Shown here: positions 3,121-63,962 of the stretch, piece by piece
How positions within the stretch are numbered: the first letter of the stretch is position 1
Layout of the letters: every line of letters begins with the position of its first letter
IMG/VR virus record: IMGVR_UViG_2524614847_000004
Location: 1-64,000 of that record
Reading direction: 5' to 3' (one strand)
Source of the DNA: a virus
Taxonomy: Duplodnaviria; Caudoviricetes
Length of the DNA: 64,000 nucleotides
Program-made: the position numbers and the translations under genes
Notes under the pieces: generated by a model
The model's input: the letters and a program-made list of their open reading frames with translations, nothing else
What the model was told of the DNA's origin: nothing
Databases searched by the model: none

Positions 3121-3472
3121 CAGTAAGCCCCTTTCCAGTGCCACTTAGCAGAATGTGTCCTCGCTTATCTAGTACTTTGAATGTAGCATTTTCAATTTCA
3201 TCAACAATATCTTTATAATCTCTTTTGTCGTTTTTATTAAAGACAATTGATGATGTAATTTTTACACCACAATACTTATTATTGCTTATATTAGCAACGG
3301 GTGTATTTATGGGCTTAGTTTCACTTATTTGCCTTTCTGCTAATCTAATTTCGTCTTTATTAAGCCACTGAATCCACTTACCACAATCTGAACAATAAAG
3401 GCCAGTGTTATTTCCAGGCTTGCTTATAAAGACTTCTGTGCTTCCACATTTACCACACTTAAACTGTTTCAT
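3107..3472 (-). CDS. zinc-finger hypothetical phage protein
   Basis: CGKC...CSDC motif at the N-terminus. Confidence 0.7.
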   Translation of the reverse strand: MKQFKCGKCGSTEVFISKPGNNTGLYCSDCGKWIQWLNKDEIRLAERQISETKPINTPVANISNNKYCGVKITSSIVFNKNDKRDYKDIVDEIENATFKVLDKRGHILLSGTGKGLTDEDI

Positions 3473-7456: not shown

Positions 7457-7485
7457 GACTCTCTCCTTCCTTCTATATTAATTAA

Positions 7486-7557
7486 CAGCGGTAGATGGTA
7501 TCGAACCATCTTCTCTGAGGTCAAAGCTCAGTGTGATAACCTGTTCACTATACCGCT
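7486..7557 (-). tRNA. tRNA-Gln(UUG), CCA not encoded
   Basis: Cloverleaf: acceptor AGCGGTA/TACCGCT, D-arm GTGA/TCAC, anticodon arm CTGAG-CTTTGAC-CTCAG, T-arm GATGG-TTCGATA-CCATC, discriminator G. Confidence 0.9.
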
Positions 7558-7619
7558 ATTTAGGTCAACCTTTTTACTACGGCCGACCATTTGGTTTGTA
7601 TATTCCTTTTACTATATAA

Positions 7620-7668
7620 ATAATAGCACCTATCGCTTTATAAGTCAATAGGTTTATAATTTCTTTTT
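7620..7668 (-). promoter_or_regulatory. conserved phage sigmaA-type promoter/operator (copy 1), upstream of the tRNA
   Basis: AAAAAGAAATTATAAACCTA-TTGACT-17nt-TATTAT with TG extension. Confidence 0.8.
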
Positions 7669-7672
7669 ATGA

Positions 7673-20530: not shown

Positions 20531-21931
20531 GTACTATATGTACCTCCTTTAAATTAAAATTGTTTTTGGTTTTCTATGTAAACACCAGCTCATCACCAGC
20601 GATAACATGAAACTTGCTCTATGTGAAATCTATTTAAAAGTTGCATTTTCTCGGAAATTTTGAACCGTATTTGACCGCTTTTCCGATAAAAAGGTGCAAA
20701 AATAATAAGGCATCGAAATACCATATCCGAATATTGATATTATTGTTTATGTATTACTTAATGACCTCTCCCTATTTCTATAGATTTGGTTAATTGGTTA
20801 CTCAATATATATTACTTTTTACTCTTACTCGTATTTGTCTGCGAACTCTTAAAATACTTACCGATAGTGGCTAAGATCGCACATGTAAGAGGAATCAATT
20901 CTCTTGTAAATCTTGTTGTATCAAAAATTAAATTCAATCCATTGACCACTGCATTACCTACGAAGTAATTAAGAATCATTCCCCCTAGATAAGAAAATCC
21001 AAAAGTCAGAACAGGTGCAAAAACAAGTAACCCCATTAGTCCTGCAAATGCTGTTAGCACTACTGTTACAGAACCAATATTTTCTAGTGTTTCATTCTTC
21101 AATAGTTAATCTCCTTTCCGTTCCATATTAAACTTGATGTGCGAATAAGTACCACAAAACTATAAAGTACAATATCCAAACTATGTTGTCGCAATTGCGA
21201 TTCCACTGAAGTTCTTTAAATTGTTTCCACTCATAGGCGTACCAGACTGCGGATATTGCCATGCTAACAATGAGCGCTTTTAAAAATGCCATTAAACACC
21301 TCCTATCTCACAATCATATCTTCAATACTACTTTCAGATATCTTACGTTCTCTCGCAGCTTCAGGAGTCATAATCCCAATATAATACCCTCGACTAACTA
21401 TGTATTTCCCAGGCTTATGTTCTCTCAACCAATCCTCAACTTTCTCAGCAAATTTCTCCTGATACTCACAAATCTCATTATTGCCGTAATTGTCTTCATA
21501 GTCATCTTCGTCCATGTATTGGGCGAACACCATTGCATTTTCAGCTTCTTCCATATCAATTAGAAATTGCTGAAATTCTTCTTCCATTTCTTCGTACATG
21601 ATTCACCTTCTTTCCACTATCTTTTTAGGATAAATTCACAATTTGATTAGCTCAACACATTGATTAAAACCAATGCTGCAGCGATTGCCGTCACTGCTTT
21701 CCAATCAAAGTTAAAAGCAAAAAATCCATCAAACAAACTAATCTTCATTATGTAATACCCCTCTCTACTTACCAGCTCCCCATTTAACCTTGCCGTTGGC
21801 TGCTACCTCTGGTCTGTTCTTCTTCACCTTACTCATAATACTTTTGAACCTTGCAAATTCTGTTTTCTTTCCCTTCATTGATTAAGTCTCCTTTTTTCAT
21901 ATTTGGTTTGTATATTCTGTTTACACGATAA

Positions 21932-21980
21932 ATAATAGCACCTATTGTTGGTGTTGTCAATAGGTTTTTAAATTCTTTTT
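21932..21980 (-). promoter_or_regulatory. conserved phage promoter/operator (copy 2), upstream of the replication module
   Basis: AAAAAGAATTTAAAAACCTA-TTGACA-17nt-TATTAT; inner palindrome ACCTATTG...CAATAGGT. Confidence 0.85.
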
Positions 21981-22209
21981 AGATATTATAAGCAAACTAC
22001 ACTTTTATAGCAATTTTAAAGCCGGTACAAAATCAGAATAACCAATTTGCTGCTTATCCGTTATTCGGCGCAATTCTATTATTGCTTCATTAATGTTGAC
22101 AATATCACTTAATTGTTTTGCTGATCTACTATGAATCTTTTCCCGATATGTAAATATCTTTCTCATTCACCCATCCTTTATTGTATTTTAGTATCCTCAC
22201 ATGATATAA

Positions 22210-26363: not shown

Positions 26364-26564
26364 CTAAATCACCCATCTTTCCTCCCATCTGTTATTCCAA
26401 CTCTCAATAGCCCACTCTTCCTGATCTGGATTGCCAATATTGGCTCCACAGTTCTGCCACTCTACAAAGAAACCACCATATCTGCTTTTATATACCTCTA
26501 TCCAATCATCTCCACAGAATGGACATTTTTTTGCTTCAATTCTTTTTTGTTTCTTTCTATCCAT
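26364..26564 (-). CDS. Lar-family restriction alleviation protein
   Basis: KKCPFCG...(W)QNCGA...AIESWNNR signature; second CxxC is degenerate. Confidence 0.7.
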   Translation of the reverse strand: MDRKKQKRIEAKKCPFCGDDWIEVYKSRYGGFFVEWQNCGANIGNPDQEEWAIESWNNRWEERWVI

Positions 26565-34840: not shown

Positions 34841-35689
34841 CTAATCACCTACTTTCTAAACAAAACACGAGTTTTCTCGTAACTACTAACTCCGGTTCCC
34901 AACATGATTATACATTCCAAGTTCTTCAAGCGCATTTGCAATCTCATTTTTAAAGTCGCTTGGTTCTTGTTCATAATCATCTAACATCTCATCAATCTCG
35001 AATTTATTACGTAGACATATGTACAAATACTCAGCTAATCCGATGACTGAAAAACCATCTACCTCAATATCTGAAAATCTTTGCATATTACCATTTAAGT
35101 AATGGCAAAATCCGTCTGCTCCAACAAAAACTTTTGTGTCCTTTTTAATTATTTCCTTATAACCAAAACACTTTTTAACCTCATCATCTTCCTTATATTG
35201 AAGCATTTGTCCGATACCATAAACCACTTTCTTATCACTCATATTTTTCTCCTCTCATTTTTCTAAGCAAATACGCACTTAATAAAATCATTAGCGGCTT
35301 CCGATATTGATTTGGTATTTCTAATCACATTTTTTATGTATAGTTGGTATGTATATTTATCATTGGAAAATTTAATATCAACTGCATCAAAGACTTTTGA
35401 TATGCTTAAATTCTTAATATTACTCATATCCAAGTATTCTAAAGGCTTCTTATCAATGCTATCTTCTAAAATAACTTGTCCATCAAAGAGTTCGGCCTTA
35501 TATCTGCCAAACTTATACATCTTTCGTGTTGCATCATTAGCTTTCGATAACAACATATCATTGCCCCCATTATCAATAACCAATTTTATAATTTTTGCTG
35601 CATTATTCATTCTATATCTCCTTTAGGTTTGTATTTTCTCATTATTGTCTTATAATTTAAACGCCATCCACGGCGTCTAAATTATTACA

Positions 35690-36676: not shown

Positions 36677-37124
36677 AAATTCCCTTTTGGATATCCATAG
36701 TATAAGCTATTCTCTCCAGAACATCAAGGTCGTCAATATATCCAATTTTATCATATACGTAACATGATGGTATCTGAGTTTCACATTCTGCTAACAGAAT
36801 AGAATCATATGGCAGCCCAAACTGTCCAGACTGAAAATAGGTATGTGTAGGTAAGTACTTCTTTTCTTTTGATGTAAATGGAATAACGTGTACATTTCCA
36901 TTCACAGCTTTGTTGTTCATATTATTAGATACAATAAGCACTGGCCGCTTGCCCCTCTGCATATGACAATCAACTCCCACTTCAGGTAAGTATGCCCATC
37001 TAATTTCGCAACATTTGATTACATCTTTAATGTTTCTTGCCGCCGGTTTATTGTCATTTTTCCCATTGTAAACAAAAAATGTAGATGTATTAATCTTCTT
37101 GCAACATGTAGTTAAATCTTCCAT
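36621..37124 (-). CDS. MazF/PemK-family endoribonuclease
   Basis: QRGKRPVLIVSNNMNN, VIPFTSK, LPTH, DSILLAE motifs. Confidence 0.88.
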   Translation of the reverse strand: MEDLTTCCKKINTSTFFVYNGKNDNKPAARNIKDVIKCCEIRWAYLPEVGVDCHMQRGKRPVLIVSNNMNNKAVNGNVHVIPFTSKEKKYLPTHTYFQSGQFGLPYDSILLAECETQIPSCYVYDKIGYIDDLDVLERIAYTMDIQKGIYDKISKLRNERVGATNGF

Positions 37125-37180
37125 TCATATCAACCTCCCGTTATCTTTTACTTAGGTTTGTATTTTCTTTTCATGTTTAG

Positions 37181-37229
37181 ACTATAACACATCACACACT
37201 ACATGTCAATAGGTTTATAAATTCTTTTT
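37181..37229 (-). promoter_or_regulatory. conserved phage promoter/operator (copy 3) driving the mazF-like and mrpR-like genes
   Basis: AAAAAGAATTTATAAACCTA-TTGACA-17nt-TATAGT. Confidence 0.85.
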
Positions 37230-37235
37230 TAATAT

Positions 37236-38210
37236 TTACACAAAATTTTCTGATATCATGTCATTTAAACAATTGAGATTGTCCACATCGATCTCTCCAG
37301 CATTTCCAGCATCATTCTTCCCAGTAAAGTAAGCCATTCTGATAATTTCAAATAACTTCTCTTTACTTATAGATACAATATCTTTTCTTGATGCTTGATA
37401 GGTGTTGTCCATAATTTGCGTGTAAGTATCTCCCACAGTATCGACCATATCTTGACACTGTTCGTCATCGATTCCAATATACCGTTTGGTAATATCCTGT
37501 GAAGAATGACCAAGATAGTGCATTAGATCAACTAGAGCTGCACTCTGATTTTTTGCGTTTATATAATACCAATATCCAAATGTCTTTCGAAGTGTATGCG
37601 TTCCAATATTAATTTTGATTTCAGCCACCTTTGCTGCTTCTTTAATCATATAATAAGCATTTTTTTCGGGCATGAATTTCTCATCTGCCCTATTATCAGA
37701 TCTGCATGTTCTGAAGATAAAATTGCTTACATCGATAGTTTCGTTAGTAAGGTTCAAATATTTATCTATGGCGTGTTTTACATTATTATTAATTTTTGTA
37801 GTACGATACCTGCGAAACCTCTCAGTTTTCTTATCTAGCTTTCTTATACCGATTTCTTTATATCCACCAATCTCGTCAATCAGGTCTCCCCATGTAAGCC
37901 TCACTATATCAGAAATCCGGTATGCCGTATTTAAACCTATAATAATAAGAAGATAGTTCCTAGCTGCTGTCAATACCCGATATTCCGTATCAGCCTTTGA
38001 AATACATTGTTCAAAATATCTTATAAATCGAACTAAGTCATCAGGGTTTTTAATTGGATGCACCAATGTGGATTTCCCCCGATTTTTCCCTACTTTCTTT
38101 TCGCTCTTTTCAATTGCCTTACCTGTTTCGATACTATAAACTTGACAATTCTTTGCATCTTGATAATTATCTGGCTCATTAGCTAATATTCCCATAGTTG
38201 CTCCTTTCAT
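37236..38210 (-). CDS. tyrosine recombinase/integrase
   Basis: Complete R (TAYRISD), K, HTLRKT, LGH, Y (TKRYIG) catalytic set. Confidence 0.9.
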   Translation of the reverse strand: MKGATMGILANEPDNYQDAKNCQVYSIETGKAIEKSEKKVGKNRGKSTLVHPIKNPDDLVRFIRYFEQCISKADTEYRVLTAARNYLLIIIGLNTAYRISDIVRLTWGDLIDEIGGYKEIGIRKLDKKTERFRRYRTTKINNNVKHAIDKYLNLTNETIDVSNFIFRTCRSDNRADEKFMPEKNAYYMIKEAAKVAEIKINIGTHTLRKTFGYWYYINAKNQSAALVDLMHYLGHSSQDITKRYIGIDDEQCQDMVDTVGDTYTQIMDNTYQASRKDIVSISKEKLFEIIRMAYFTGKNDAGNAGEIDVDNLNCLNDMISENFV

Positions 38211-40092
38211 GTTAGATCACATTTATAAGTACTATAAAAAGCACTGGAAATAATTCTCCAATGCCCTATTTACTACCTACAAGCTCAATTCATGCAACAA
38301 CCAAAATTAACATTCTCTAGTTGCTTTAATTTCCTAAATCTTATTTCCGTGTGATACAAGTTTGTAATTCCACATTTCAGCACCATTCCAACTTCTCAAC
38401 AAATTTCCACATTCACAATACTCACTATCTTTATCTCTGGTAATGAGTTTTATTCTTCGTACTTCGTATTCGGCCCCACATTTTCCACAAGTTTCTTTCA
38501 TAACTTTATCCTCCTACAAAGTTTGTTTACTTTATATCCCCTCTATCATTTTATACCCAAATCTTAATACTTCATAATGTCTAATCCTTCATCAATCTTA
38601 GATTTTATCAACTATCTTCTTCAAAATACACAACTTCATTTTCTTTTAACGGACACCAATCTTTAATAGACTCATATACATATCTTACCATTCTGCCATC
38701 ATCGTCGAAATCATCATAATTTTCATTTTCTATCAGATTCTTTAACCAATCAACAATATCCAAAAGCACTTTTTCTGAAACTATATTATATTCTTCTCTT
38801 ATCCAATGAATATCATCTCTTTGCTGATAAAATCTGTCTAAAACAGGTTTGTAACTATTAACCTCATCTATTGTTGCCTTTTGGATGTCATCATATAATA
38901 AGTAGCCACCTATATGATGAATTTTGGTTTTATCAGCTTTAATTAAGTACATATCATATCCCACAAATTCACCCCCATTGAATCTCAAATTTCATTAACT
39001 TTATCATTAATTATTTTTTCAACAAGGCTTTCTGCGTTACTAGATAAATACCTTAATCTTTGTCCCTTAGGCATACCTGTTTCTTGCCATTTTATTTTAT
39101 CTATAACTTTAACTTCTTTAAATTGACTATTATCATACGCTTTAATATATTCTTCTGATTTATGATTCCAATATTTATCATCAGGTGCTGTATTATTACG
39201 TGAAAAGCTACATAGCCCACCCGTCCTTAAAATATAAGCATTGTCTCCATATCTAATTACAAAACAGTCGCCTTTTGATAATTCACCAATATTTAACGTA
39301 GAAACAGATAAAAATATCTCTGCCTTGTCATTAACCGCATCTTCGAATTTATACACAGATTGTTTTAAAACTCTTGCTTCTATCATACTCATGTCTCCTT
39401 TTTTATAAAACTATTATTTCATATCAATTATTTTATCACTTAATTCTTTTAAGCAATTTTCACACATTCCACATACATCAATTCCTTTAGTGCCACCTTG
39501 TACTTGTGTACATATTTCAATGTTATATAATTGTTCTGGCAAATGCTTCCCACAGGATAAACAATATGCCTTTTCTATACTTTTAACAATCTTAATCATA
39601 TTTTACTATTCCTTTCTAAGACTTTAAAATAATCATTTTAAGTTATTTTAATAACCACACTTTTTCATTTTTTCTATATTAAATTTGTATAAGGTAACTT
39701 CACCATGATATTTTTCAATCGAATACCTTTTTAAGTCTTCATCTGTATACAAGAATTTAAATTTTCTTAATTCGTTGTATAACTTCTTACTCATTTTTAA
39801 TGGATATGCATTCCACCCGTAACCCGTTTTCTTAGTTATTACTTGAATAATTGCTCCATTATCCATAACAATATCATTCTCATTTATATTAAAAGTATTT
39901 CTTCCTATCTTTAACTGTAAAGTATCAGATATTTCCATCACAACACCCCTTCTTTCTTCAATATCCGCTTCACTGTTTTATTATCTAGGCAGAACGCAGC
40001 TGCTACTCTCTTAATGTCATTGAATCGCTCGTATTCCTTTATAATATCTTCATCGGTAAATGCATAATTCGCCGGCTCATTCATGTACTTTT

Positions 40093-40644
40093 TCATGATT
40101 TCTCCAATAATATCAGTTTTTTTACTTTTTCAATTTCGTCGTTTGTATGAGGAGTACCACCTGCATTCATGTCAACATACCACTGAAGAACCTCTTTTTT
40201 GCTCTTCAAATCATTTATATTAACTTTCATAGTCTGATTCAATAATCTGATCCTATCTTCATATTCTTTAAAGTAAGATCCAAACACCTTTATTTCATTA
40301 TGAATGAATCGGGATGCTGCTGTTATCCTTTGTAATCCATCAACGCAAACATAGTCGCTATATTCTCCTGATTTTGTTCCAAATCTTCGTGACGGATTAT
40401 TTAAGTATATTACATTCCCAGACTTGCCTCCACGTAGATGATATTCTAACCACGCAATTTGCTGTTCCTCAGTCCATACATGACCTCTCTGGAAATCCGG
40501 ATTAAGTTGAAGACCCATCTCTTCTATTTCATCTTCTATATAATTAACCAAGCTTGCTAATGTATAATCCACTTGATAACTTCCATCAGAAGTAAATTGT
40601 GGAATATCTTTAAACCTCGTTATTTTCAAATCATTATCCTCCAA
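40093..40644 (-). CDS. stand-alone DUF262 (GmrS/ParB-like) domain protein
   Basis: PDFQRGHVW and VDGLQR motifs, MNAGGTP. Confidence 0.85.
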   Translation of the reverse strand: MEDNDLKITRFKDIPQFTSDGSYQVDYTLASLVNYIEDEIEEMGLQLNPDFQRGHVWTEEQQIAWLEYHLRGGKSGNVIYLNNPSRRFGTKSGEYSDYVCVDGLQRITAASRFIHNEIKVFGSYFKEYEDRIRLLNQTMKVNINDLKSKKEVLQWYVDMNAGGTPHTNDEIEKVKKLILLEKS

Positions 40645-41391
40645 TCACAATAAAACAATCCTTTTATCGTGTAAACTTACAATATATTTTATTAGACAGC
40701 TTAAGTCCTCCCGGAGCAAATTGTGGCACCTCATATAACTTGTATGAGTATCCACGTTTTTTAAACTCCATTATTGTTTCAACTGATCCGGTGCAGGTTG
40801 TATCAGTATACAGCACATTTAGCTTATGAGCATCGGCATATTCCAGACACTCATCATAAAAGGAATGATCTAATAATAAAGTGTTACTATCTCCTTCTTC
40901 AAATACTGGTATATATCCCATCATTATTCCTCGCCTCCTATCAACTTCTTAATTTATCAACCGCTAATCAATTCCTGGCCTACCATTTTCCTTTTCGTGC
41001 TTGTTATAAGCTGCCTTTTCTGATGAAGTCATCGGTAGATTCCCATATGAACTTGTCATATTCTTCTTTTCTAATGATTTCATATACTCCCCACCGCCTG
41101 GGTAATTCTTATACTTCCAATCAAGATATGCTTGAGTGCCGTATCTTGGTGGCTTATTCTTCCTTTTTATATAAACGACAACTCCAACAATAAATAATAA
41201 TCCCAATAATGACCCCATAATTAAGCTACCTCCTTAGTCAATGTATATCCTGCATTTTCAAGTGCTTCTTTCATATTATCATACCATACGTGCAGATCGT
41301 TTTCATTATAAATTATCTTATCTCCGGGATTTAATACCGGCTGTCTATCTTTACTCATATTATCTTTCTCCATTCTCATCAAACATGTCTT

Positions 41392-42474
41392 CTATCTCAG
41401 TTTAACAGCGTTCCTATTTTCTCTTTTTTTCTCGTCTTCTAGTGCCACATAGTGCCGTTTGGCAGTGTTCACATCTGCATGGCCCAATGTACCAGCAACT
41501 AGGTAAATGTCCCCTGTGGCTTTATATAAAGCCGTCCCATAGCTCCTTCTAAGTGTATGGGGAGTAACCTTCTTCTGGATCCCAGCCAGTCTTGCATACT
41601 TAGGAATTAAATCTTCTACACTTCTGGTTGATATTCGTTTGTTCTGTAGAGATAAAAATAGAGCATTCTCATGCCCTTTGATTGCTTCCACCTGTTTTCT
41701 TTCTTCTAAATAAAGTTCCAACGCCGATCTGGTATCATCACTAAAATATACAGTTTCTTCTTTTCCTCCTTTTCGGTATATTCTGATTCCACTGTTTTTG
41801 AAATCTACGTTGTTAATGTCCAATCCAATACATTCGGAAACACGGATTCCTGTGGTAAGTAGCAACATGATTATTGCCAAATCTCGCTTCCGTGTTATTT
41901 CAAAGAATGAACGTTCTCTTCCTTCTAAACCTCCACCAGTTTCTACCACCTGGATAAATGCTTTCATTTCGTCACTGTCAAGACGTACTATTTCTTTGTC
42001 ATGCAATTTGGGAAGCTGCACAAGCGACGCTACGTTATTCTTTATCCTCTCATTCTGATAAAGATATTTGTAGAATGCTCTTAATGCCGATATTTTGCTC
42101 TTTAGGCTATATTCCCCGTTTGTATTTTCATTCCCTGAATCATCACTCCAACATTTTAGCCATTCCATATATTTTTCAAAATCAATGACTTTCAGGTTTT
42201 CCAACACATCAAGAGTAATTGACTCCATATTTGTAGCTTTACTGCTTCTAATTAAATAATCAAAGAAGAGCCTTAAATAACCGGCATAAGCAATCCTTGT
42301 CTTGGAAGAAGTTCTCGGTTCAATCCCACGAAAAAAGTCTTCGCAATAGGATGGCATTGTGGATATAATGCTCCTAAGTTTCTTTATATTCTGGATATCA
42401 TTCTGTTCATGATATGTCATGATACTACCCCCGTTTTTATTCCGACTAATATCAGTTTGCGTGCTCTTTCTCAT
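41392..42474 (-). CDS. XerC/XerD-like tyrosine recombinase
   Basis: N-terminal core-binding domain, TGIRVSE, RKGGK, PHTLRRS, LGHAD, RHY; probable start is the ATG at 42420. Confidence 0.92.
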   Translation of the reverse strand: MRKSTQTDISRNKNGGSIMTYHEQNDIQNIKKLRSIISTMPSYCEDFFRGIEPRTSSKTRIAYAGYLRLFFDYLIRSSKATNMESITLDVLENLKVIDFEKYMEWLKCWSDDSGNENTNGEYSLKSKISALRAFYKYLYQNERIKNNVASLVQLPKLHDKEIVRLDSDEMKAFIQVVETGGGLEGRERSFFEITRKRDLAIIMLLLTTGIRVSECIGLDINNVDFKNSGIRIYRKGGKEETVYFSDDTRSALELYLEERKQVEAIKGHENALFLSLQNKRISTRSVEDLIPKYARLAGIQKKVTPHTLRRSYGTALYKATGDIYLVAGTLGHADVNTAKRHYVALEDEKKRENRNAVKLR

Positions 42475-43842
42475 AGATCAACTGGCATTCACTTTTCCCC
42501 CAGGGCTTGTAATGCAGATACTTACCTCTACCAACAGTAGGTATAAAAAAGTATCCTCGCCCATGTATCGGTTTTCCGCATACGCAACACATCCTTTTTT
42601 CTGGTTTTATATTTTTGATCTGGATTACTCCTGGATAATTCATATACCTACCTTCCTCCCGGTACTCCGGGAAATCCTAATTTAGCATCTTCATGGTGTT
42701 AGCAACTCTGTTCAAACGTTCCGAAAGTTCTCCAAATGAGACCACAATCAATAAGGTAAGTATAAATCCAGTTAAGATCCCTATATAGAAGAAATCTCTC
42801 CATTTTGTAAATATAGGCATTTTTTGGCAATCGCTTATAACTTTAAATATAAAAGCTGAAACTATGGCAGTCGCCATCCATGTAATTAAATATAGAATTA
42901 TATAGTCTTTATAATTCATAAAATTAGTTCCTCCAAATTTCAGTTTCCTTTCTTATCCTTGCATTCTGGACATCGTGCATACCCGTTATTTTTAACAACC
43001 CAGCCTTGATCTTTAGCTATCTTTTTTAGCCTTGTATTATGATTACCAGTGCCAGAAAAACCATCAAGAACGGTGCAATATTCGTCACAGACAATTTCAT
43101 GCCATAGCATATAATCACCTCACGAAAATTCTAAATTTACTTAATCCTTATTACATTTGCTTTTAAATTCACACTTACATTTTCTCCCGCCTGGAAGAGT
43201 AAAATAATATTTATTGCGATCCAACTCAGTTTGTCTTTGTGGCATATTCCCACCTGATATAAGACATACATATTCCTTATCTTTAAATCTGTTTTTCTTT
43301 TCAGTGATTGCTAACCACAAGCAATTTTTACAACAAACGTCAGGTAAATCCATAGTAAGACCCCTTTCTATTCATAATCGTAAGCTTCATTTAACCAACA
43401 CTTTTCTCTTTTATGCTTGCCACCTACCAGAGAATCAAGCTTAAGCCATGCCATTTCTTCATTTTCGGCAGGAATCTTAATTTCTGTTAAATATGGCTCT
43501 TTTACCCATTTATAGGCATCAAAATTCAAGCCAAAACAATATAGTTTCATGTCATTTTCTTTGCCACTGTTCATTTTTAAATCTGATTCTTTAAACATCC
43601 CCTTGGTATTAGCCCCAAGAGGCATGTTGTATTCTACTGTATAAATCGGTTCAATATCTAAATCAGGATGAAGCTTCACAACCGTACCGGCCGTATGCTG
43701 AATAAATACTTTGTCAAATAATTTATATTTCATTTATTTATCTCCTTTTCTATAAAATGGATTTTTCTTGTTATAAATTCTAATTTTCATAATTAAAAAA
43801 ACTACCAATACGATTATTGATAGTTTAAAATAATATAGGTTA

Positions 43843-47682: not shown

Positions 47683-49604
47683 ATTACATCACTGGATTCT
47701 TCTGAGCAGGTTGCCAGCTTTCTTCTCCATACAGTTTTGCATGTCTCTTCACATATTCATCAAAAAATTCCTGATCGGTACATGGGGCCAAGTCGAAATG
47801 AATTTTTTCTCTTATATCATCATCCATCATTGTCACTGCTACATCAAAATCAATTTCTACTCCGTACTGATTAATAACGTCCCTCATAATTTACCTCCCA
47901 ATTTTTATCATTACTATTATTATACTGCCCATATGATATATTTTCAATTTCTATCTACACATTTCAAGAAAATCATTAGTACTCATGGCGCCCTCCCACC
48001 AACAAGCAACCGCTGGCCTATCTTCTGAACTATTTAAATAGTCCTCTAGCTGTTTTCTAAAGTAGTTAAGCATATCACCATCAAATGCAGCCTTCAGTTT
48101 ATCAAAGTCCTTGCACTGTTCTAATTCTCCATACCCCATAGAAACACCTCCTTATTAAATCTACCGCTAACTATGTGCGGTTAGTGACCTAAGCCAGATC
48201 AACCACTAATTCTCCGTGATAAGCAGCAATCACTTTCAGACTGCCGGGAATGCCTTGTTTACCTTTGACAGTAACGGCCTATCCTTCCGGATCACCGACA
48301 AGGCTATGTATTAAGATATAATGCAATGCAAGGCGAAAATTTCCGTGAAATTATCAAATGTAGATATGTATACACCATTTGCATACATTTCAATTTTCCC
48401 TTCCCTGTTCTTCATGTAATGAAATTTTATATTGTCATTCATGTTTTAATCCTCCGGTCTGTGTAAATAAAGCTGCGCTTACAATTATCAATAAAGCTGT
48501 TAATGTCCAGTTTCCGTCCTGGTCTGGTAGCATAAAGAGTACAAAAAAAGAAAGCAATAATAAAATGCTTCCTACGATTCGGTTCCATATTATGAAATTT
48601 CGTCTTTGTTTTCGCCTTTCAATGCGTCGATAGCTATATGAGCAGCTATAATCTTTTGTTGTATCGCTTACCAAATTCATTATAATTTCCTCCCCTTTTA
48701 TGTTCTCCTCTGCAAGTCAAACGAGAAATAACATACCCTATTAACGCTCCTATAGAAACACTTCCTATTAAAAAATAAAACGATTCCATACGTCCTCCTT
48801 AACTATAAAATGTGCTTTTCATTCTGGCATTGCATATAATATTTCATCTCTTACCATATAATAGCGGAAATTCGCCATCTCTTCTGTGAGTTCACCGTTT
48901 TCGACCATTTCATCACATTCTTTTTGTAATTCTTCACATGCCTTTTTATATCTTTCTCCAAAATCGCTCATATTTACACCTCCGTTGAAACCTGTCTTTT
49001 ATTTTACTTTTTCAACAATAGCTTTTTTCCCTTCAATTTTTACTACATATTCTCCATGTTCATAAAACGAAACAGTTAATGGAAATTGAAAATCATTATA
49101 TCCTCCGCTAAAAGAACAAGAAGCAAATCTAAAGTTTCCCTTTCCCCCTCCCATTACTATATCTTCAGTTACTACTCTTACTTTTTTTTCTTTAACCACA
49201 ATCGTTGCCTCCTTCTTATTTCAATTAATAAAATCTATTTTTTATTCTGATATTTCATACCATTGAATTTCTGATCTGTTGTTCATTTTGTCAAATATAT
49301 CAGTTACATTGTTTTTCAATAAATTATACTGGTGTTCCATCTCTACCAAATTTGCTTGATAATATGCTTCTAGTCTTGTCTGGAATATACCTTCATAGTT
49401 GTACGGCCTCAATTGCGAAATTGTTTCTTCCGCCGTATGGTTGTTCAACCAATAATCAGATATGACAGCTTTTGATAAAAAATATTTACCTCCAAATTTA
49501 TTAGTCATTGCTTCATCTAATTCATAAATTGCAAAATTAAACACCTCTTCAATTAATCTCATATTGTCTTTCTCCTTTTTATGTTTTCTGCATCAAATTA
49601 CAAT

Positions 49605-55027: not shown

Positions 55028-58000
55028 CTAGTACCCATAATATAATTCAATTATTTTTTCCTTTTTTAGTTGTTCTATTTCTATATCATTTATATCTATA
55101 TTAGAGTATGACTGTTTTAAAGTTTCTTTGGCTTCAATTTCAACATCCGCAAATATAATGCCCACAACTATTTCTCCACAGTTTCTAAAGTAATATTTAT
55201 ACATACAATAACCTCCATTGTTTTTCATTTATTCCCACTATAAAAGCCACCGGAACATTGCCCAATGGCTTCAAACTGAAAATAAATATACTACATTGTT
55301 TCTCTTTGCTCTTCCGTATTAATTGCTAATGCTTCGTAATAATCTTCCTTGCAAATTTCATCACTTGTATTTGTTGGAGATATCCACTTGTCACAGCTTT
55401 TAAAATATTCGGAATATTGACAAAAATATTTTTCTGAGGTTTTAAAATACTCCCATCTTCTCCCGTTTTTCTTATCATATAAGAAAAAACTATTTTTATG
55501 TGTATGATAACCCATTTTATTACCCCCTTAAAAGTACTATTTATTTATCATAATTATTGATCCAGTCTTCCGCTGCTTCTACTGTATCAAATTCCATATC
55601 AGAGTCAGAAGGACTGCACATATAGGCATATTCCATATTATCAGGGTGTAAAACTGTTATGTTGAATCTATATTCTTCTAATTCCTTATTATTGTTCTGG
55701 TAAATTCCCCAACCTTTAAGCTTCTTAACTCTCTTCATTCTGTTTTACCTCTCAACCAAAGAATAGTTTTATTGTATTACGGTTCTTGAATCTCATTAGT
55801 AAAATTCTCTAACAGTATCTCCAATCGTAATATCTTAGCTTCTGTTTTTTTAAGTTTTTTTAAGGCAGTTTGAAAAGAAATGTCTGTTTGACATTCTGAT
55901 AAATCAATTATTATTTTTATCAAATCTTCTTTTCTGTCCTTTTCTGCTTCAATATCATCTGTTATTAGATTATAAATGTCTACATATAAATCCTTTGTCA
56001 TTTTGATTTACCCCCACTCATAAAATAAGAATTTCAAAGCAATCCCTTTTCAATCGCTTGTTCTGGCCTTCCTCCCTCAATATATGGAAGCAAGTGTCTT
56101 TTATCTTTACGATAGTTTCCTGCACCATCATATATAAGTGCGGATTGTTCGCTTGAAAGTTTCATAGCCTTGTTGTGGTATTTCGTACAATAAGGCTCTG
56201 TATTATTGCAAGCAGTAGTTAAACGCTGATATTTACGTATTTCAATTTCAAGTTCAATAATTCGTTTATCCTCTTCTGAAAGTTTCATGTATTTTCCCTC
56301 CATTTCTCAATGCTGCGGACTTGTGACCGCTTGACTTGTGTCAAGTGCATTAAAGCAGCCCTTATAGGCTGCTCCACTCTGCTTATACTACTTCAAGGTA
56401 TAAATCTTCAATATCGTAGTTTACTAACTCGTCTTTAAAATCTTTTCGCCAAGTGTTACAATTTTTCTCAAACCTTTTTTTATTGCAATCCCAAATTGAT
56501 GTAATAATGTCACCATTTTTATGCCTTATTTGTGCTTGATACTTATTATTTTTCACTGCCTTTCCCTCCATGAAATTCGGTTTTTATTTACCACACCTTT
56601 TCATATTTAACGGAACATACACGGTCAATTAAGTCATCAATTTTTATCTGTATTGGCTTTTCCAATTCTTTTAATTCTTCATAAGATATATCACAAATAT
56701 CATAAAGTGCATCTCGTTTATCCTGTAAAGCTCTTAATTCAGATTCTAGTTCTTGTAATATCTTTGAATTTTTATTGTTTAAAGTTCTTTCTCTGTAATG
56801 ATCTCTTCTTGTATAACCGATACTTCCATATAAGGACATCTTAATTTCTCCTATCAAATAATTGTTTCATTTAATAAATGTTTTAAAAATAAGAATTTCT
56901 ATCTTTTACTAATTCTTGTATTATTTCTTTCATTTCGCTGATATTATCAGCAACTCTTGACCTTGAAAATCCGTCTTTCCACTTCATTACAATACAAATA
57001 TGTTTATCTTCCCTATACAAATCACTAATAAGATGTTGATATTTTTTAGGAACATAATTGATTAAATTTTTCATTATATCACTCCCTTAATAAATTTGAA
57101 TATTCTATTTCACTTCTATAAAATGTTTAGTTATGCCTCTACCACTTCTAAAATATATTTTCCGTTATCGGCTTTATGCACATTAAATTTCTTAACACAC
57201 TGAAACTTTAATGGAATTTCTGAAACTGAAAAGGAATATAAGAACGACATATTATCATTGTAAAATTCCACTGTTTCAATTTCTTCTCCGTACATAAGCA
57301 TATCAATCAATTTTTCTAAGTTAATCTTATTTGTTTTCATCTTCAGTCCTCCCAATGAAATGGATATTCTATGCCACTTCTATATCATTGATGTACGTCA
57401 ACGTATTTGTTCTCCAGTGACCAGCTTCTATATACTCTGCCTGAATGTTTTCCGCGTAGCCGTACATATTCAAATTATGCACCGATATTCTTAAGCCTGA
57501 TAATTCCATAATGCAATACTTTGTTTTGCCTGTATCCTTGTTTAATACTTTGTAAGGGATAAAGTCCAGATAGACAAAGTACTTTTTCCCTTCCGTACTT
57601 GACATAGCATCACATACCGCAAAGCCGTCTATAATTCCGGTTTGTTTCATTGCCTGATCGTGAATTGATTCCACGATATCCGTCGGAATTTTGCTTTTAA
57701 GTAATGAAAAATCGTATAAATACTTTTTATTGTTGGTAAATTCCTTCTTGTTTTCCTTCAGATCTGGAAATGACTTTTTCATTTTCGCCATGCTCGGCAG
57801 ACAGTTCAATGTATTGTATTTGTTCATTTTAAAATCTCCCTTTCAAAAGTTTAAAATCGTACCGCCTAGATGAATTTTCTGTACTCCGGTATGTCCTGTT
57901 TCTACATTCTCAAAAACTAAAGTTTCCGATTCGATTTTAATATTTGGTGACATGATGTTTAATATCTCTCTGCACCTTTTTGCTGATAATGTAGGCATGT

Positions 58001-60824: not shown

Positions 60825-61174
60825 TCATGGTAAATCCAACAGAATATATTAAATGAAAATAATTGATCTAATACATTTCTATTCACTTTTCAAGGTACAG
60901 TTTGCACGTTTGGAATTAACACTTGAATAAATCATAGAAATGTGATATGATATGAAACTAGTAATGTGATCACATTTTCAAGTGTGTTCCCAAAAGGGTC
61001 TGACTATTGCGAGTAGTCAGGCTCTTTTTGGTTATTCCGTTCATTTTGGTACAAGTGATCCACTTGTTAAACCGTCTATTTGCTTTGATGCTACAGGCCC
61101 ACCCTGATAGACTAAAAAAGAGTGTAGGCCCTTAATAATTCAATAGGCTTTACACTCTTTCATGATATATAAAT

Positions 61175-61997: not shown

Positions 61998-62085
61998 AGT
62001 ATAGCATAGGTTTAGCTATTATACAATAGGTTTAGCTATTCTTTTTACGAACTGTCATTATGCACAAATAATAGGTTTAGCTATT
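61998..62085 (-). promoter_or_regulatory. leftward early promoter overlapped by three 15-bp direct repeats
   Basis: ATAGGTTTAGCTATT at 62006, 62026 and 62071; TTGTAT-17nt-TATACT on the minus strand. Confidence 0.75.
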
Positions 62086-62980: not shown

Positions 62981-63913
62981 ACGAACCTTGCCAAACTTAC
63001 AGACATATCATATCAGACTTGACGATACCTGACTATATTAAGGCATTGTAACCACTGCCCATTTGCTTGCTATAGTGATTCACTTACCCATCTTTTCACA
63101 ATTTTATTATCTGATAATATACACCATTAAAACTACAATTCACTACAATTCATTAATCATATCAGCCCATTATACAATATGTACAAATTCAACCATTACT
63201 AACTGTGCACTATTTTCACTATCATTGCACTAAACAAGAGTTTACCGCAGAGATATATAATAGCATACATTGAACATGTAATTATGCCCTATTAGATTAA
63301 GATACATATGCCTATTCGTTGTATACTATTTCATTACCCATGACCGGGGGTGTATTTACATTTTGAGACTGTTTTCACATGTCGGAATACCACATATCAG
63401 TTCCACTCACACATCAAGTTGAAATTTCAACCTCTTTTATTGTAAAACCATCCACCTATTGTGACTACAATTAACAAAATTATCAGACACGATAAAATCA
63501 TCATAATTTCATGTCTCAACTACATTTCTATCACAATCATTATCTAATTGTCTATACAATTCCAAAAATCACACAAAATGAGTTCGATAGTGAGTTCGAA
63601 GGAACACTTATAAAATATGGCCAAATTGAATTTACAGACAATTCAAAATCAGCACTTTTCACTCTCGGAAGTCGAACAAACCCTTGTAAAATAAGGCTTA
63701 TTACGAACTCACCCACATTTTCTTAAAAATCACATCTCTGATCTCTCTCCCACCATCACTCACACACCCAACAAACCAATACAGAATAAGCATTCGTTTC
63801 CTATATAATGTAAAAAATAATCTTTTCTACCGAACTCAACATTTTCACCATGTCCAAAATGATCGTTCTTATTGTGTATCCCATGGCAGAAATTTAAGGT
63901 CCTTAAAATTTTT

Positions 63914-63962
63914 AAAAAGAATTTAAAAACCTATTGACAAGTTTAACCAAATGGTTTATGAT
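63914..63962 (+). promoter_or_regulatory. conserved phage promoter/operator (copy 4), rightward
   Basis: 27-bp exact match to 21954-21980 (reverse complement); TTGACA-17nt-TATGAT. Confidence 0.85.

Follow-up and report, generated by a model that had tools for sequence, protein, structure and literature searches.

A phage-borne paralogue of the single Xer recombinase of Lachnospiraceae, kept without a recognisable site of its own

Is a host-like Xer recombinase that sits deep inside a prophage an integrase, a cassette recombinase or a resolvase, and on which DNA would it act? The question is raised by a stretch of 64,000 nucleotides (the window) from the virus record IMGVR_UViG_2524614847_000004 (Duplodnaviria; Caudoviricetes), in which a gene for an XerS-like tyrosine recombinase lies on the minus strand at 41392..42420. 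The window opens a longer IMG/VR 'provirus' record of 135,533 bp (G000; CheckV completeness 78%), of which it makes up the first 64 kb, and we compared this full record with three related provirus records, G001 (116 kb), G002 (114 kb) and G003 (70 kb). An earlier reading of the letters without database searches (the sequence-only reading) had described an intact, host-like Xer-type recombinase, far from any visible prophage boundary, embedded in an array of sites and itself ending in one; it had put the gene forward as the leading candidate for an integron-related cassette recombinase, with a replicon dimer resolvase as the alternative. Judged from sequence comparisons, the gene is shown to be an intact, selected, phage-borne paralogue of the single Xer recombinase of the host.

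A tyrosine recombinase in the early arm of a prophage

The gene lies within an uninterrupted minus-strand open reading frame (ORF) of 360 aa, 41392..42474, that ends in a TAG stop codon (cta on the plus strand, 41392-41394). Its likely start is the ATG at 42418-42420, giving a product of 342 aa, because a GGGGG, read from the sequence as the ribosome-binding site (42428..42432, minus strand), ends 7 nt upstream of it, relatives are 342 aa long and copies begin with MTYH; the in-frame ATG farther upstream (42472-42474, minus strand) is the alternative start, for 360 aa. A length of 342 aa is found in all 14 of the closest database relatives, and both this length and the MTYH start in all six of the other phage-clade copies that we fetched. 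At the position equivalent to the GGGGG, L005-L008 have GGAGG. The sequence-only reading had the extent of the ORF right, and it is the start of the gene that has to be moved, probably to the downstream ATG.

The product matches Pfam Phage_integrase (PF00589; 6.6e-36, 124.1 bits against a cut-off of 27.1) over residues 164-348 of the 360-aa ORF and has a SAM-like N-domain (PF02899) in its N-terminal part; no arm-binding N-terminal domain was found in the Pfam scan. Its top NCBIfam model is the XerS equivalog NF003462, matched from position 7 to 356 of 360 at 198.4 bits, which is below the cut-off of 267; the runners-up XerA, XerC and XerD (180, 161 and 149 bits) are likewise all below their cut-offs. 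By sequence, the nearest solved structures are XerA 5hxy (4e-21) and XerD 1a0p (2.5e-19). In 342-aa numbering, R193, K217/K220, H288, R291, H314 and Y324 are invariant across 13 sequences from phage and host (the recombinase and 12 relatives), and from their motif context (GIR.SE, H..R, LGH, HY) we take these residues to be the R-K-H-R-H-Y catalytic set. The uninterrupted frame, the PF00589 match and this set bear out the earlier description of an intact Xer-type enzyme, and we regard it as shown that the gene codes for a tyrosine recombinase, predicted to be catalytically complete, of the single-recombinase Xer type and XerS-like.

Among known systems the protein is most like XerS, which acts with difSL in streptococci and lactococci, in recombination that FtsK activates: this is its best model, its R-K-H-R-H-Y set is full, it is one recombinase and not an XerC/XerD pair, and its 342 aa compare with 356 aa for XerS. 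Unlike XerS it is phage-borne, neither chromosomal nor at a terminus, and at 198 bits it stays short of the XerS cut-off.

The gene lies in the early (replication) arm of a large integrated prophage of ~116 kb from Lacrimispora. Up to ~62 kb of G000 nearly all genes are on the minus strand, and this arm codes for PolIII alpha, a DnaB-like helicase, NAD ligase, a DHH phosphoesterase, an AcrIC5-like protein and many small unknowns; the plus-strand arm (~63 to 114.6 kb) codes for the terminase, the tape-measure protein and other structural proteins. The segment at 115-122 kb of G000 (LigD, Ku, Y-family polymerase, LexA) has 79-89% DNA identity to the chromosome of a Lacrimispora strain and is host flank; the counterpart of the prophage flank in a related chromosome is ~1.2 Mb away from the xer/dif locus of that host. 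G001-G003 are collinear with G000 and have no inverted segments. At the extreme end of each of these three records, after an SH3/cell-wall-hydrolase gene, stands an open frame of 462-464 aa with a tyrosine-recombinase match, the usual place of a prophage integrase; G000 ends ~7.5 kb short of this position. The gene studied here lies inside the prophage, at a distance of 41-44 kb from the integrase end (and of 40-70 kb from either end of the prophage), so that the earlier remark about its distance from any visible boundary stands. Because of this internal position, and because another recombinase occupies the ends of G001-G003, its location shows that it is not the prophage integrase. It is part of a long minus-strand transcription unit, in which we found no convincing promoter or terminator dedicated to it (63 promoter-like sites were counted, where shuffles have 53.3 ± 8.5). 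Assembled RNA contigs from a mixed-culture study leave the recombinase uncovered, which carries no information on its expression.

Origin of the phage gene and the module of its host

A word-indexed search of 5.8 billion proteins returned two tiers of relatives. The first tier (77-95% identity, 342 aa), which includes proteins named from Lacrimispora sphenoides and from an Acetobacterium wieringae metagenome-assembled genome (MAG), is phage-borne; seven copies were recovered (the window, L005-L008, L134 and L135), all in the same kind of phage. The second tier (55-59% identity, 351 aa, full length) is a very large set from Lacrimispora, Hungatella, Enterocloster and allies. We built a maximum-likelihood tree (quick LG+G4 search) of 54 rows, made up of five phage copies, every third of the 79 near-host loci (27), 20 distant members of the family and two virome records; the copies L134 and L135, recovered only afterwards, are outside the tree. 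The five phage rows are monophyletic, with a support of 100 in the SH-like approximate likelihood ratio test (SH-aLRT), on a stem of 0.77 changes per site. They fall inside the diversity of the Lachnospiraceae Xer family, on its Lacrimispora/Hungatella/Enterocloster side (SH-aLRT 94, with the fork drawn open and subject to long-branch caveats). MT835555 and MT835478, 'phage' records holding relatives at 49% identity, were set aside as informants on the phage clade since they fall among host sequences and have dif-like sites of their own; they are host-type modules.

The ratio of nonsynonymous to synonymous substitution rates (dN/dS) is 0.07-0.11 in all ten pairs within the phage clade, from which we conclude that the phage gene is kept under strong purifying selection. 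Of the 137 columns that are invariant in at least 94% of 49 host rows, 99 are retained in all five phage rows, and 20 are fixed to another residue there, including three beside the HxxR motif (K289T, S292R, T293S) and a group clustered at 152-157. The picture suggested by these sequences is of an old capture from a Lachnospiraceae host, then a burst of change, then conservation. We take it as shown that the phage-borne clade is small, that it branches inside the chromosomal Xer family of Lachnospiraceae, and that it is kept in large temperate phages of the Lacrimispora type.

The cellular relatives make up a recognisable module. Each of five large genomes has one close copy of the host gene, with the next best match at 31-36% identity, and of 301 Lachnospiraceae genomes sampled, 273 have a match to the gene (E <= 1e-60), almost always a single one, with identities of 59% at most. 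A 34-bp dif-like element, AACTATTCGCGAAA-N6-TTTAACGAATAGTT, is present with at most four mismatches over its 28 arm positions in 71 of 79 host loci (L009-L087), where it lies no more than 1 kb upstream of the gene in 56 (median 294 bp) and 1.0-7.9 kb upstream in 15; examples are L024 7687-7720 and L029 7559-7592. It was not found in the other eight of the 79 loci, six of which have less than 1.3 kb of upstream flank. The 14-bp arms form an imperfect inverted repeat (12/14) and the 6-bp centre takes 17 forms across lineages; a core site for a tyrosine recombinase is expected to have just this form, with constant arms and a centre that is free to vary. Two complete chromosomes each have the site once, a reversed-pattern control giving 0. 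Within a 3.75-Mb chromosome the host locus is found at 50% of the length, and within a 6.37-Mb sequence at 49.7%. In 35 of the 52 loci with 3 kb or more on either side of the site, the GC skew switches there from positive (left) to negative (right). On the XerS model the host proteins P0074 and P0020 score 213 and 211 bits, also below the cut-off.

The host module is a single-recombinase Xer/dif system of the XerS/XerH kind. Its 6-bp centre differs from that of difSL, given as 11 bp in PMC5357621. Our literature searches found no description of this single-recombinase module in Clostridia or Lachnospiraceae; the search by Kono et al. 2011, as far as its available text goes, was limited to XerCD-type sites. 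The 'host-like' label of the sequence-only reading proves apt, the nearest cellular relatives of the phage gene being this single-copy, dif-linked and terminus-located recombinase. The chromosomal family has a 351-aa protein, a skew switch and a nearby upstream site, and no such site was found for the phage gene in the four phage genomes.

In several host loci the intact site is kilobases off and a degenerate half-site stands beside the xer gene (L044; similarly L017, L022, L040 and L080). The 5.4 kb between the intact site and the half-site in L044 (2230-7655) code for a rolling-circle Rep (PF02407, 9.5e-11), and the insert resembles a mobile element that the host Xer has integrated into dif. 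An element apparently integrated at dif supports the view that the host site is active in recombination.

The proposed stop-codon site and the role of the phage enzyme

The sequence-only reading had placed the TAG of the gene within a core site, ATCAAA-CATGTC-TTCTAT (ATCAAACATGTCTTCTAT, 41378..41395). The letters are there, as the stop codon and the spacer before the next gene; as a site they fail. Only four of the six positions of its 6-bp arms pair, and an equal or better pairing in a 6-6-6 arrangement is found at 3307 of 63983 positions of the window (5.2%). Among the seven phage copies the stop codon is TAG (window, L005, L135), TGA (L006, L008, L134) or TAA (L007), and the sequence 3' of the stop is unrelated in L006, L008 and L134. 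We reject ATCAAACATGTCTTCTAT as a recombination site because its pairing is at chance level and it is not conserved with the gene.

Nor does the window hold an array of such sites. Palindromes are not enriched over mononucleotide shuffles: there are 14 with perfect 8-bp arms against 17.4 ± 5.1, 40 with 10-bp arms and at least 9 pairs against 33.9 ± 5.6, and 62 with 12-bp arms and at least 10 pairs against 49.5 ± 10.2. A repeat search of the window gave ten short inverted pairs, the sole multi-copy direct families being promoter-like; there is no repeated site family at the gene junctions of the window, and so no cassette array. A recombinase serving an integron-like array bounded by palindromic sites would be an Xer-related 'simple' tyrosine recombinase among many short genes on one strand, as this one is, and the protein shares a superfamily with IntI, with a distant match over the C-terminal catalytic motifs (IntI4 2a3v, 2.9e-13). 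The integron-integrase models TIGR02249 and NF011946 nevertheless give 72.2 bits against a cut-off of 265 and 43.4 against 435, and no attI with an array of attC-like sites is present; we attach next to no probability to such a reading. The stop-codon motif is ruled out as the target, and cassette or integron recombination as the function of the gene; both the array and the role that had been ranked first for it have to be given up.

It is the replicon dimer resolvase, the second choice of the sequence-only reading, that we prefer; it fits the ancestry of the protein, and its weak point is that no target was found on the phage. The role would be to resolve multimers of circular phage DNA, or to tidy such DNA site-specifically in some similar way, a proposal that we make tentatively, as possible and somewhat short of probable. 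Each of two core sites would be bound at its inverted arms by two monomers, the two sites would synapse, and strands would be exchanged across the short central region via a Holliday junction; multimers arising by homologous recombination, in theta-type replication or in an episomal state, would in this way be returned to monomers. We favour this role because it keeps the ancestral chemistry, because it is the one assigned in other large temperate phages, and because the phage has its own replisome (PolIII alpha, DnaB-like helicase and NAD ligase, by Pfam).

Cre is a phage-encoded tyrosine recombinase that resolves P1 multimers at a defined phage site, loxP. The job proposed here, resolving multimers of circular phage DNA, is like that of Cre/loxP of phage P1, a system listed in Table 1 of PMC8026635; unlike Cre, the enzyme has no site that we could find on the phage, and no close relationship between the two sequences was detected, Cre not being among its PDB matches at 1e-10. 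Closer in setting are the 'XerS-like' protein of Bacillus pBtic235-like elements, Tyrovirus gp19/gp175 and that of Clostridium phage c-st (PMC8026635, PMC9703825). In these two papers, Xer-family and 'XerS-like' recombinases of large temperate and plasmid prophages are read as dimer resolvases, a function that is presumed there. Those phages are like the present one in having an Xer-like gene near replication genes, a temperate genome of more than 100 kb and several tyrosine recombinases. Unlike them, the present phage is integrated and no partition genes were found in it; the Bacillus phage proteins have only 26-28% identity to the recombinase.

Several results weigh against multimer resolution, and the first group of them concerns the site. 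The best match of the host 34-bp pattern in G000 has mismatches at 9 of the 28 arm positions. Searches of G000-G003 with the full pattern, half-sites and a relaxed core gave chance-level matches only; the relaxed cores (spacers 4-12, at most three mismatches) matched 2, 4, 3 and 2 times in G000-G003 against 2.4 expected per 115 kb, and none of these matches is syntenic. A de novo dyad scan (arms of 14 with at least 11 pairs, or of 12 with at least 10; spacers 5-11; conservation across the four genomes) found, as conserved dyads, only terminator-like hairpins or coding sequence, and weakly symmetric or intragenic sites would escape it. We found no long inverted or direct repeats bracketing an invertible or excisable segment, and in the flanks of the seven phage copies no dif-like or dyad site and no att-like repeat near the gene. 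Upstream of the gene only the last ~35 nt, the ribosome-binding region, are common to the phage copies. Since the flanks are not conserved beyond this, the gene has no linked site, unlike XerS, XerH and the host module; the XerS gene lies immediately beside its dif-type site, the two forming one module (PMC5357621).

Single candidates were inspected and set aside. Of the host-dif-like matches, G000 114571 is a terminator hairpin, G000 123301 is inside a broken integrase gene, and G002 85503 and G003 37006 are at the start of a coding region; G001 3996 lies at a break of the G000/G001 homology, but it is a single 3-mismatch match of the kind expected by chance. The top dyad (35652-35685) is a hairpin that follows a stop codon and has no counterpart in the other loci, the conserved dyads at 60995 and 114576 are terminator-like, a conserved intergenic 27-bp element near 36870 is coding, and a conserved block at 48.14-48.33 kb looks like structured RNA.

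The second group of contrary results concerns the distribution of the gene. DNA homology among G000-G003 around it is limited to G000 40957/40965..42435/42458, that is, to the recombinase and two small ORFs: one of 53 aa directly downstream (41221..41382, minus strand) and one of 84 aa with a hydrophobic N-terminus (40964..41218, minus strand), which ends the conserved block. Neither has a Pfam or PHROG match. The 53-aa ORF travels with the recombinase in G001-G003, L134 and L135, has 81-88% aa identity in L005-L007 (tblastn) and is absent from L008 and from all 79 host loci; the 84-aa ORF has 65-81% aa identity in L005-L007. Gene order differs around the recombinase (Rec): it is Rec-53-84-86 (ORF lengths in aa) in G000 and 86-Rec-53-84 in L134 and L135, and in L008 Rec is followed by a DUF3267 gene, which in G000 lies upstream of Rec. 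A metagenome relative joins 39419 to 43794, with 39420-43793 replaced by 2121 other letters (85% likeness), and in another element, from the likely source isolate, 41367 is joined to 43821 (85% likeness, a relative and not the same phage). Because these relatives lack the gene at the same locus, it is accessory within the phage lineage. Finally, a Pfam search found no partition gene of the ParA, ParM or TubZ type, and with the phage integrated a plasmid stage is not indicated. The lack of a site and the accessory distribution together tell against multimer resolution and in favour of an enzyme that acts on the dif of its host.

On this explanation, the main rival, the phage enzyme would leave phage DNA alone and act on the chromosomal dif, either manipulating dimer resolution or excising, blocking or competing with elements integrated there. 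The searches that found no site on G000-G003 are in its favour, and so is the near constancy of the host arms over a protein divergence as large as that between phage and host: the L104 protein has 58.6% identity to that of the host locus L024, and the outer arms are kept, G159 and G280 (~60% identical) and L105 also keep the arms, and the phage protein is 56.4% identical. The gene is moreover accessory, the mosaic early region around it contains anti-defence-like genes (AcrIC5, 3e-20; Lar-like; GmrSD_N), and other mobile DNA does use the host dif, as in the 5.4-kb L044 insert with its Rep, true site and degenerate half-site. The long phage stem (0.77) and the 20 fixed replacements, three of them beside HxxR, would instead fit a changed function or specificity, and in three of five distant host genomes (G250, G104, G212) no site with the same arms was found, so that arms can change at such distances. 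One phage-clade copy is in an Acetobacterium MAG without a host-type gene, a weak point given the uncertain binning of its 11.9-kb contig, and we know of no phage recombinase that acts only on a host site. We consider action on the host dif rather unlikely, and rate similarly low its fuller form, in which a phage without a site of its own uses a diverged host dimer resolvase on the host dif, perhaps without septal (FtsK) control.

Simple Xer-like tyrosine recombinases can also be integrases (PMC8026635), and the gene might belong to a second system for integration and excision, through which the phage could use another attachment site in the chromosome. Several recombinases per phage (PF00589 has four matches in G000, four in G001 and three in G002) would suit this, as would the co-conserved 53- and 84-aa ORFs if they were directionality factors; we think it improbable, for the gene is far from either prophage end, has neither an arm-binding N-terminal domain nor an att-like repeat nearby, and in all integrated copies seen is in the same phage arm and never at a junction. 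The tight limits of the homology block, the differing neighbourhoods in G000, L134/L135 and L008 and the relatives that lack the gene at the same locus might also be read as a small mobile cassette, the recombinase with or without its small ORFs, moving between phage genomes. Neither boundary of the block has a repeat or a conserved motif in common on either side, and breakpoints at gene boundaries are ordinary phage mosaicism, which leaves such a cassette distinctly improbable. More improbable still is a DNA invertase that switches a phage segment: the matches to tyrosine-type DNA invertase models are weak (50 and 46 bits against cut-offs of 222 and 221), no inverted repeats of at least 14 nt bracket a segment, except a promoter-like element common to both arms, and G000 is collinear with G001-G003, no segment being inverted. 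We return to multimer resolution as the reading that we favour.

Other elements of the prophage and the meaning of the gene

The second recombinase of the window (324 aa, 37236..38210, minus strand; PF00589 4.7e-16, phrog_216 integrase 2.4e-42) is unrelated to the first; it matches no NCBIfam family at 1e-10, and the PF00589 scan of G001-G003 found no counterpart. A third, of 438 aa, at G000 91231-92547 on the plus strand (L002 9231-10547), has a helix-turn-helix gene before it and the tape-measure gene after it and is kept in G001 and G002; its place just before the tape-measure gene is that of Tyrovirus gp50 of Bacillus phages. Past the host flank, G000 122230-124246 holds a tRNA-like 3' end, a split tyrosine integrase (ORFs 122323-122868 and 122865-123539) and a cell-wall-hydrolase gene with 83% identity to that of the G001 integrase end; this segment looks like the edge of a second, related element.

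In the early arm we noted a 67-aa protein (47684-47887, minus strand) matching the anti-CRISPR family AcrIC5 (PF22147, 3.1e-20), a Lar-like restriction-alleviation protein (26364-26564) and a GmrSD_N/DUF262 protein (40093-40644). A conserved coding stretch at ~36700-37100 (minus strand), found in G001-G003 and missed by ORF picking, has a translated motif that may resemble those of toxins of the PemK/MazF type. In the plus-strand arm, G000 66473-69217 (L001 3473-6217) codes for a 914-aa protein with a weak match to the RNA-dependent RNA polymerase family PF05183 (1.7e-6, no separate stretch), which might be a phage single-subunit RNA polymerase.

Further elements are RNA-like or promoter-like. 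A type-P5 twister ribozyme (Rfam; 52.9 bits, gathering score 37.6) lies between small early genes at 56315-56383 (minus strand). An ORF-free block of ~190 nt at 48140-48330 (minus strand), with 43% G+C in a genome of 33%, has 88-93% identity in L005-L008, far above the neighbouring genes, and in every case lies upstream of the recombinase, at 0.8-5.7 kb; its fold has several hairpins, with no covariation and no Rfam family found, and it may be the leader RNA of a 62-aa ORF (47951-48139). Promoter-like repeats at 7589-7669, 21901-21981, 37150-37230 and 62017-62050, with an inverted copy at G000 63913-63940, read TTGAC(A/T)-N17-TAT..T on the transcribed strand after a conserved A/T-rich upstream part and head successive gene blocks in both arms. 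A tRNA-Gln gene (anticodon TTG; 7485-7558, minus strand) lies just downstream of one of them.

Phage-borne Xer-like recombinases are already known, as annotations. What we have not found in print is an explicit link between such a gene and a family-wide host Xer/dif module, or the absence of any site on the phage. The phage has no integron-like cassette system; what remains is a copy of a host housekeeping recombinase, kept under selection and with no recognisable site of its own. This raises the question of whether phage Xer-like enzymes, which are widely annotated and almost never assayed, act on phage DNA or on the host dif. If the latter were true here, host chromosome segregation might be remodelled or stalled in infection, or rolling-circle elements at dif might be evicted or blocked, and this would be a phage-encoded Xer aimed at a host site, a case that we have not found described. 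For the hosts, a module that extends across the Lachnospiraceae, with mobile elements at its site, offers gut-microbiome genomics both a marker of the chromosome terminus and an integration hotspot.

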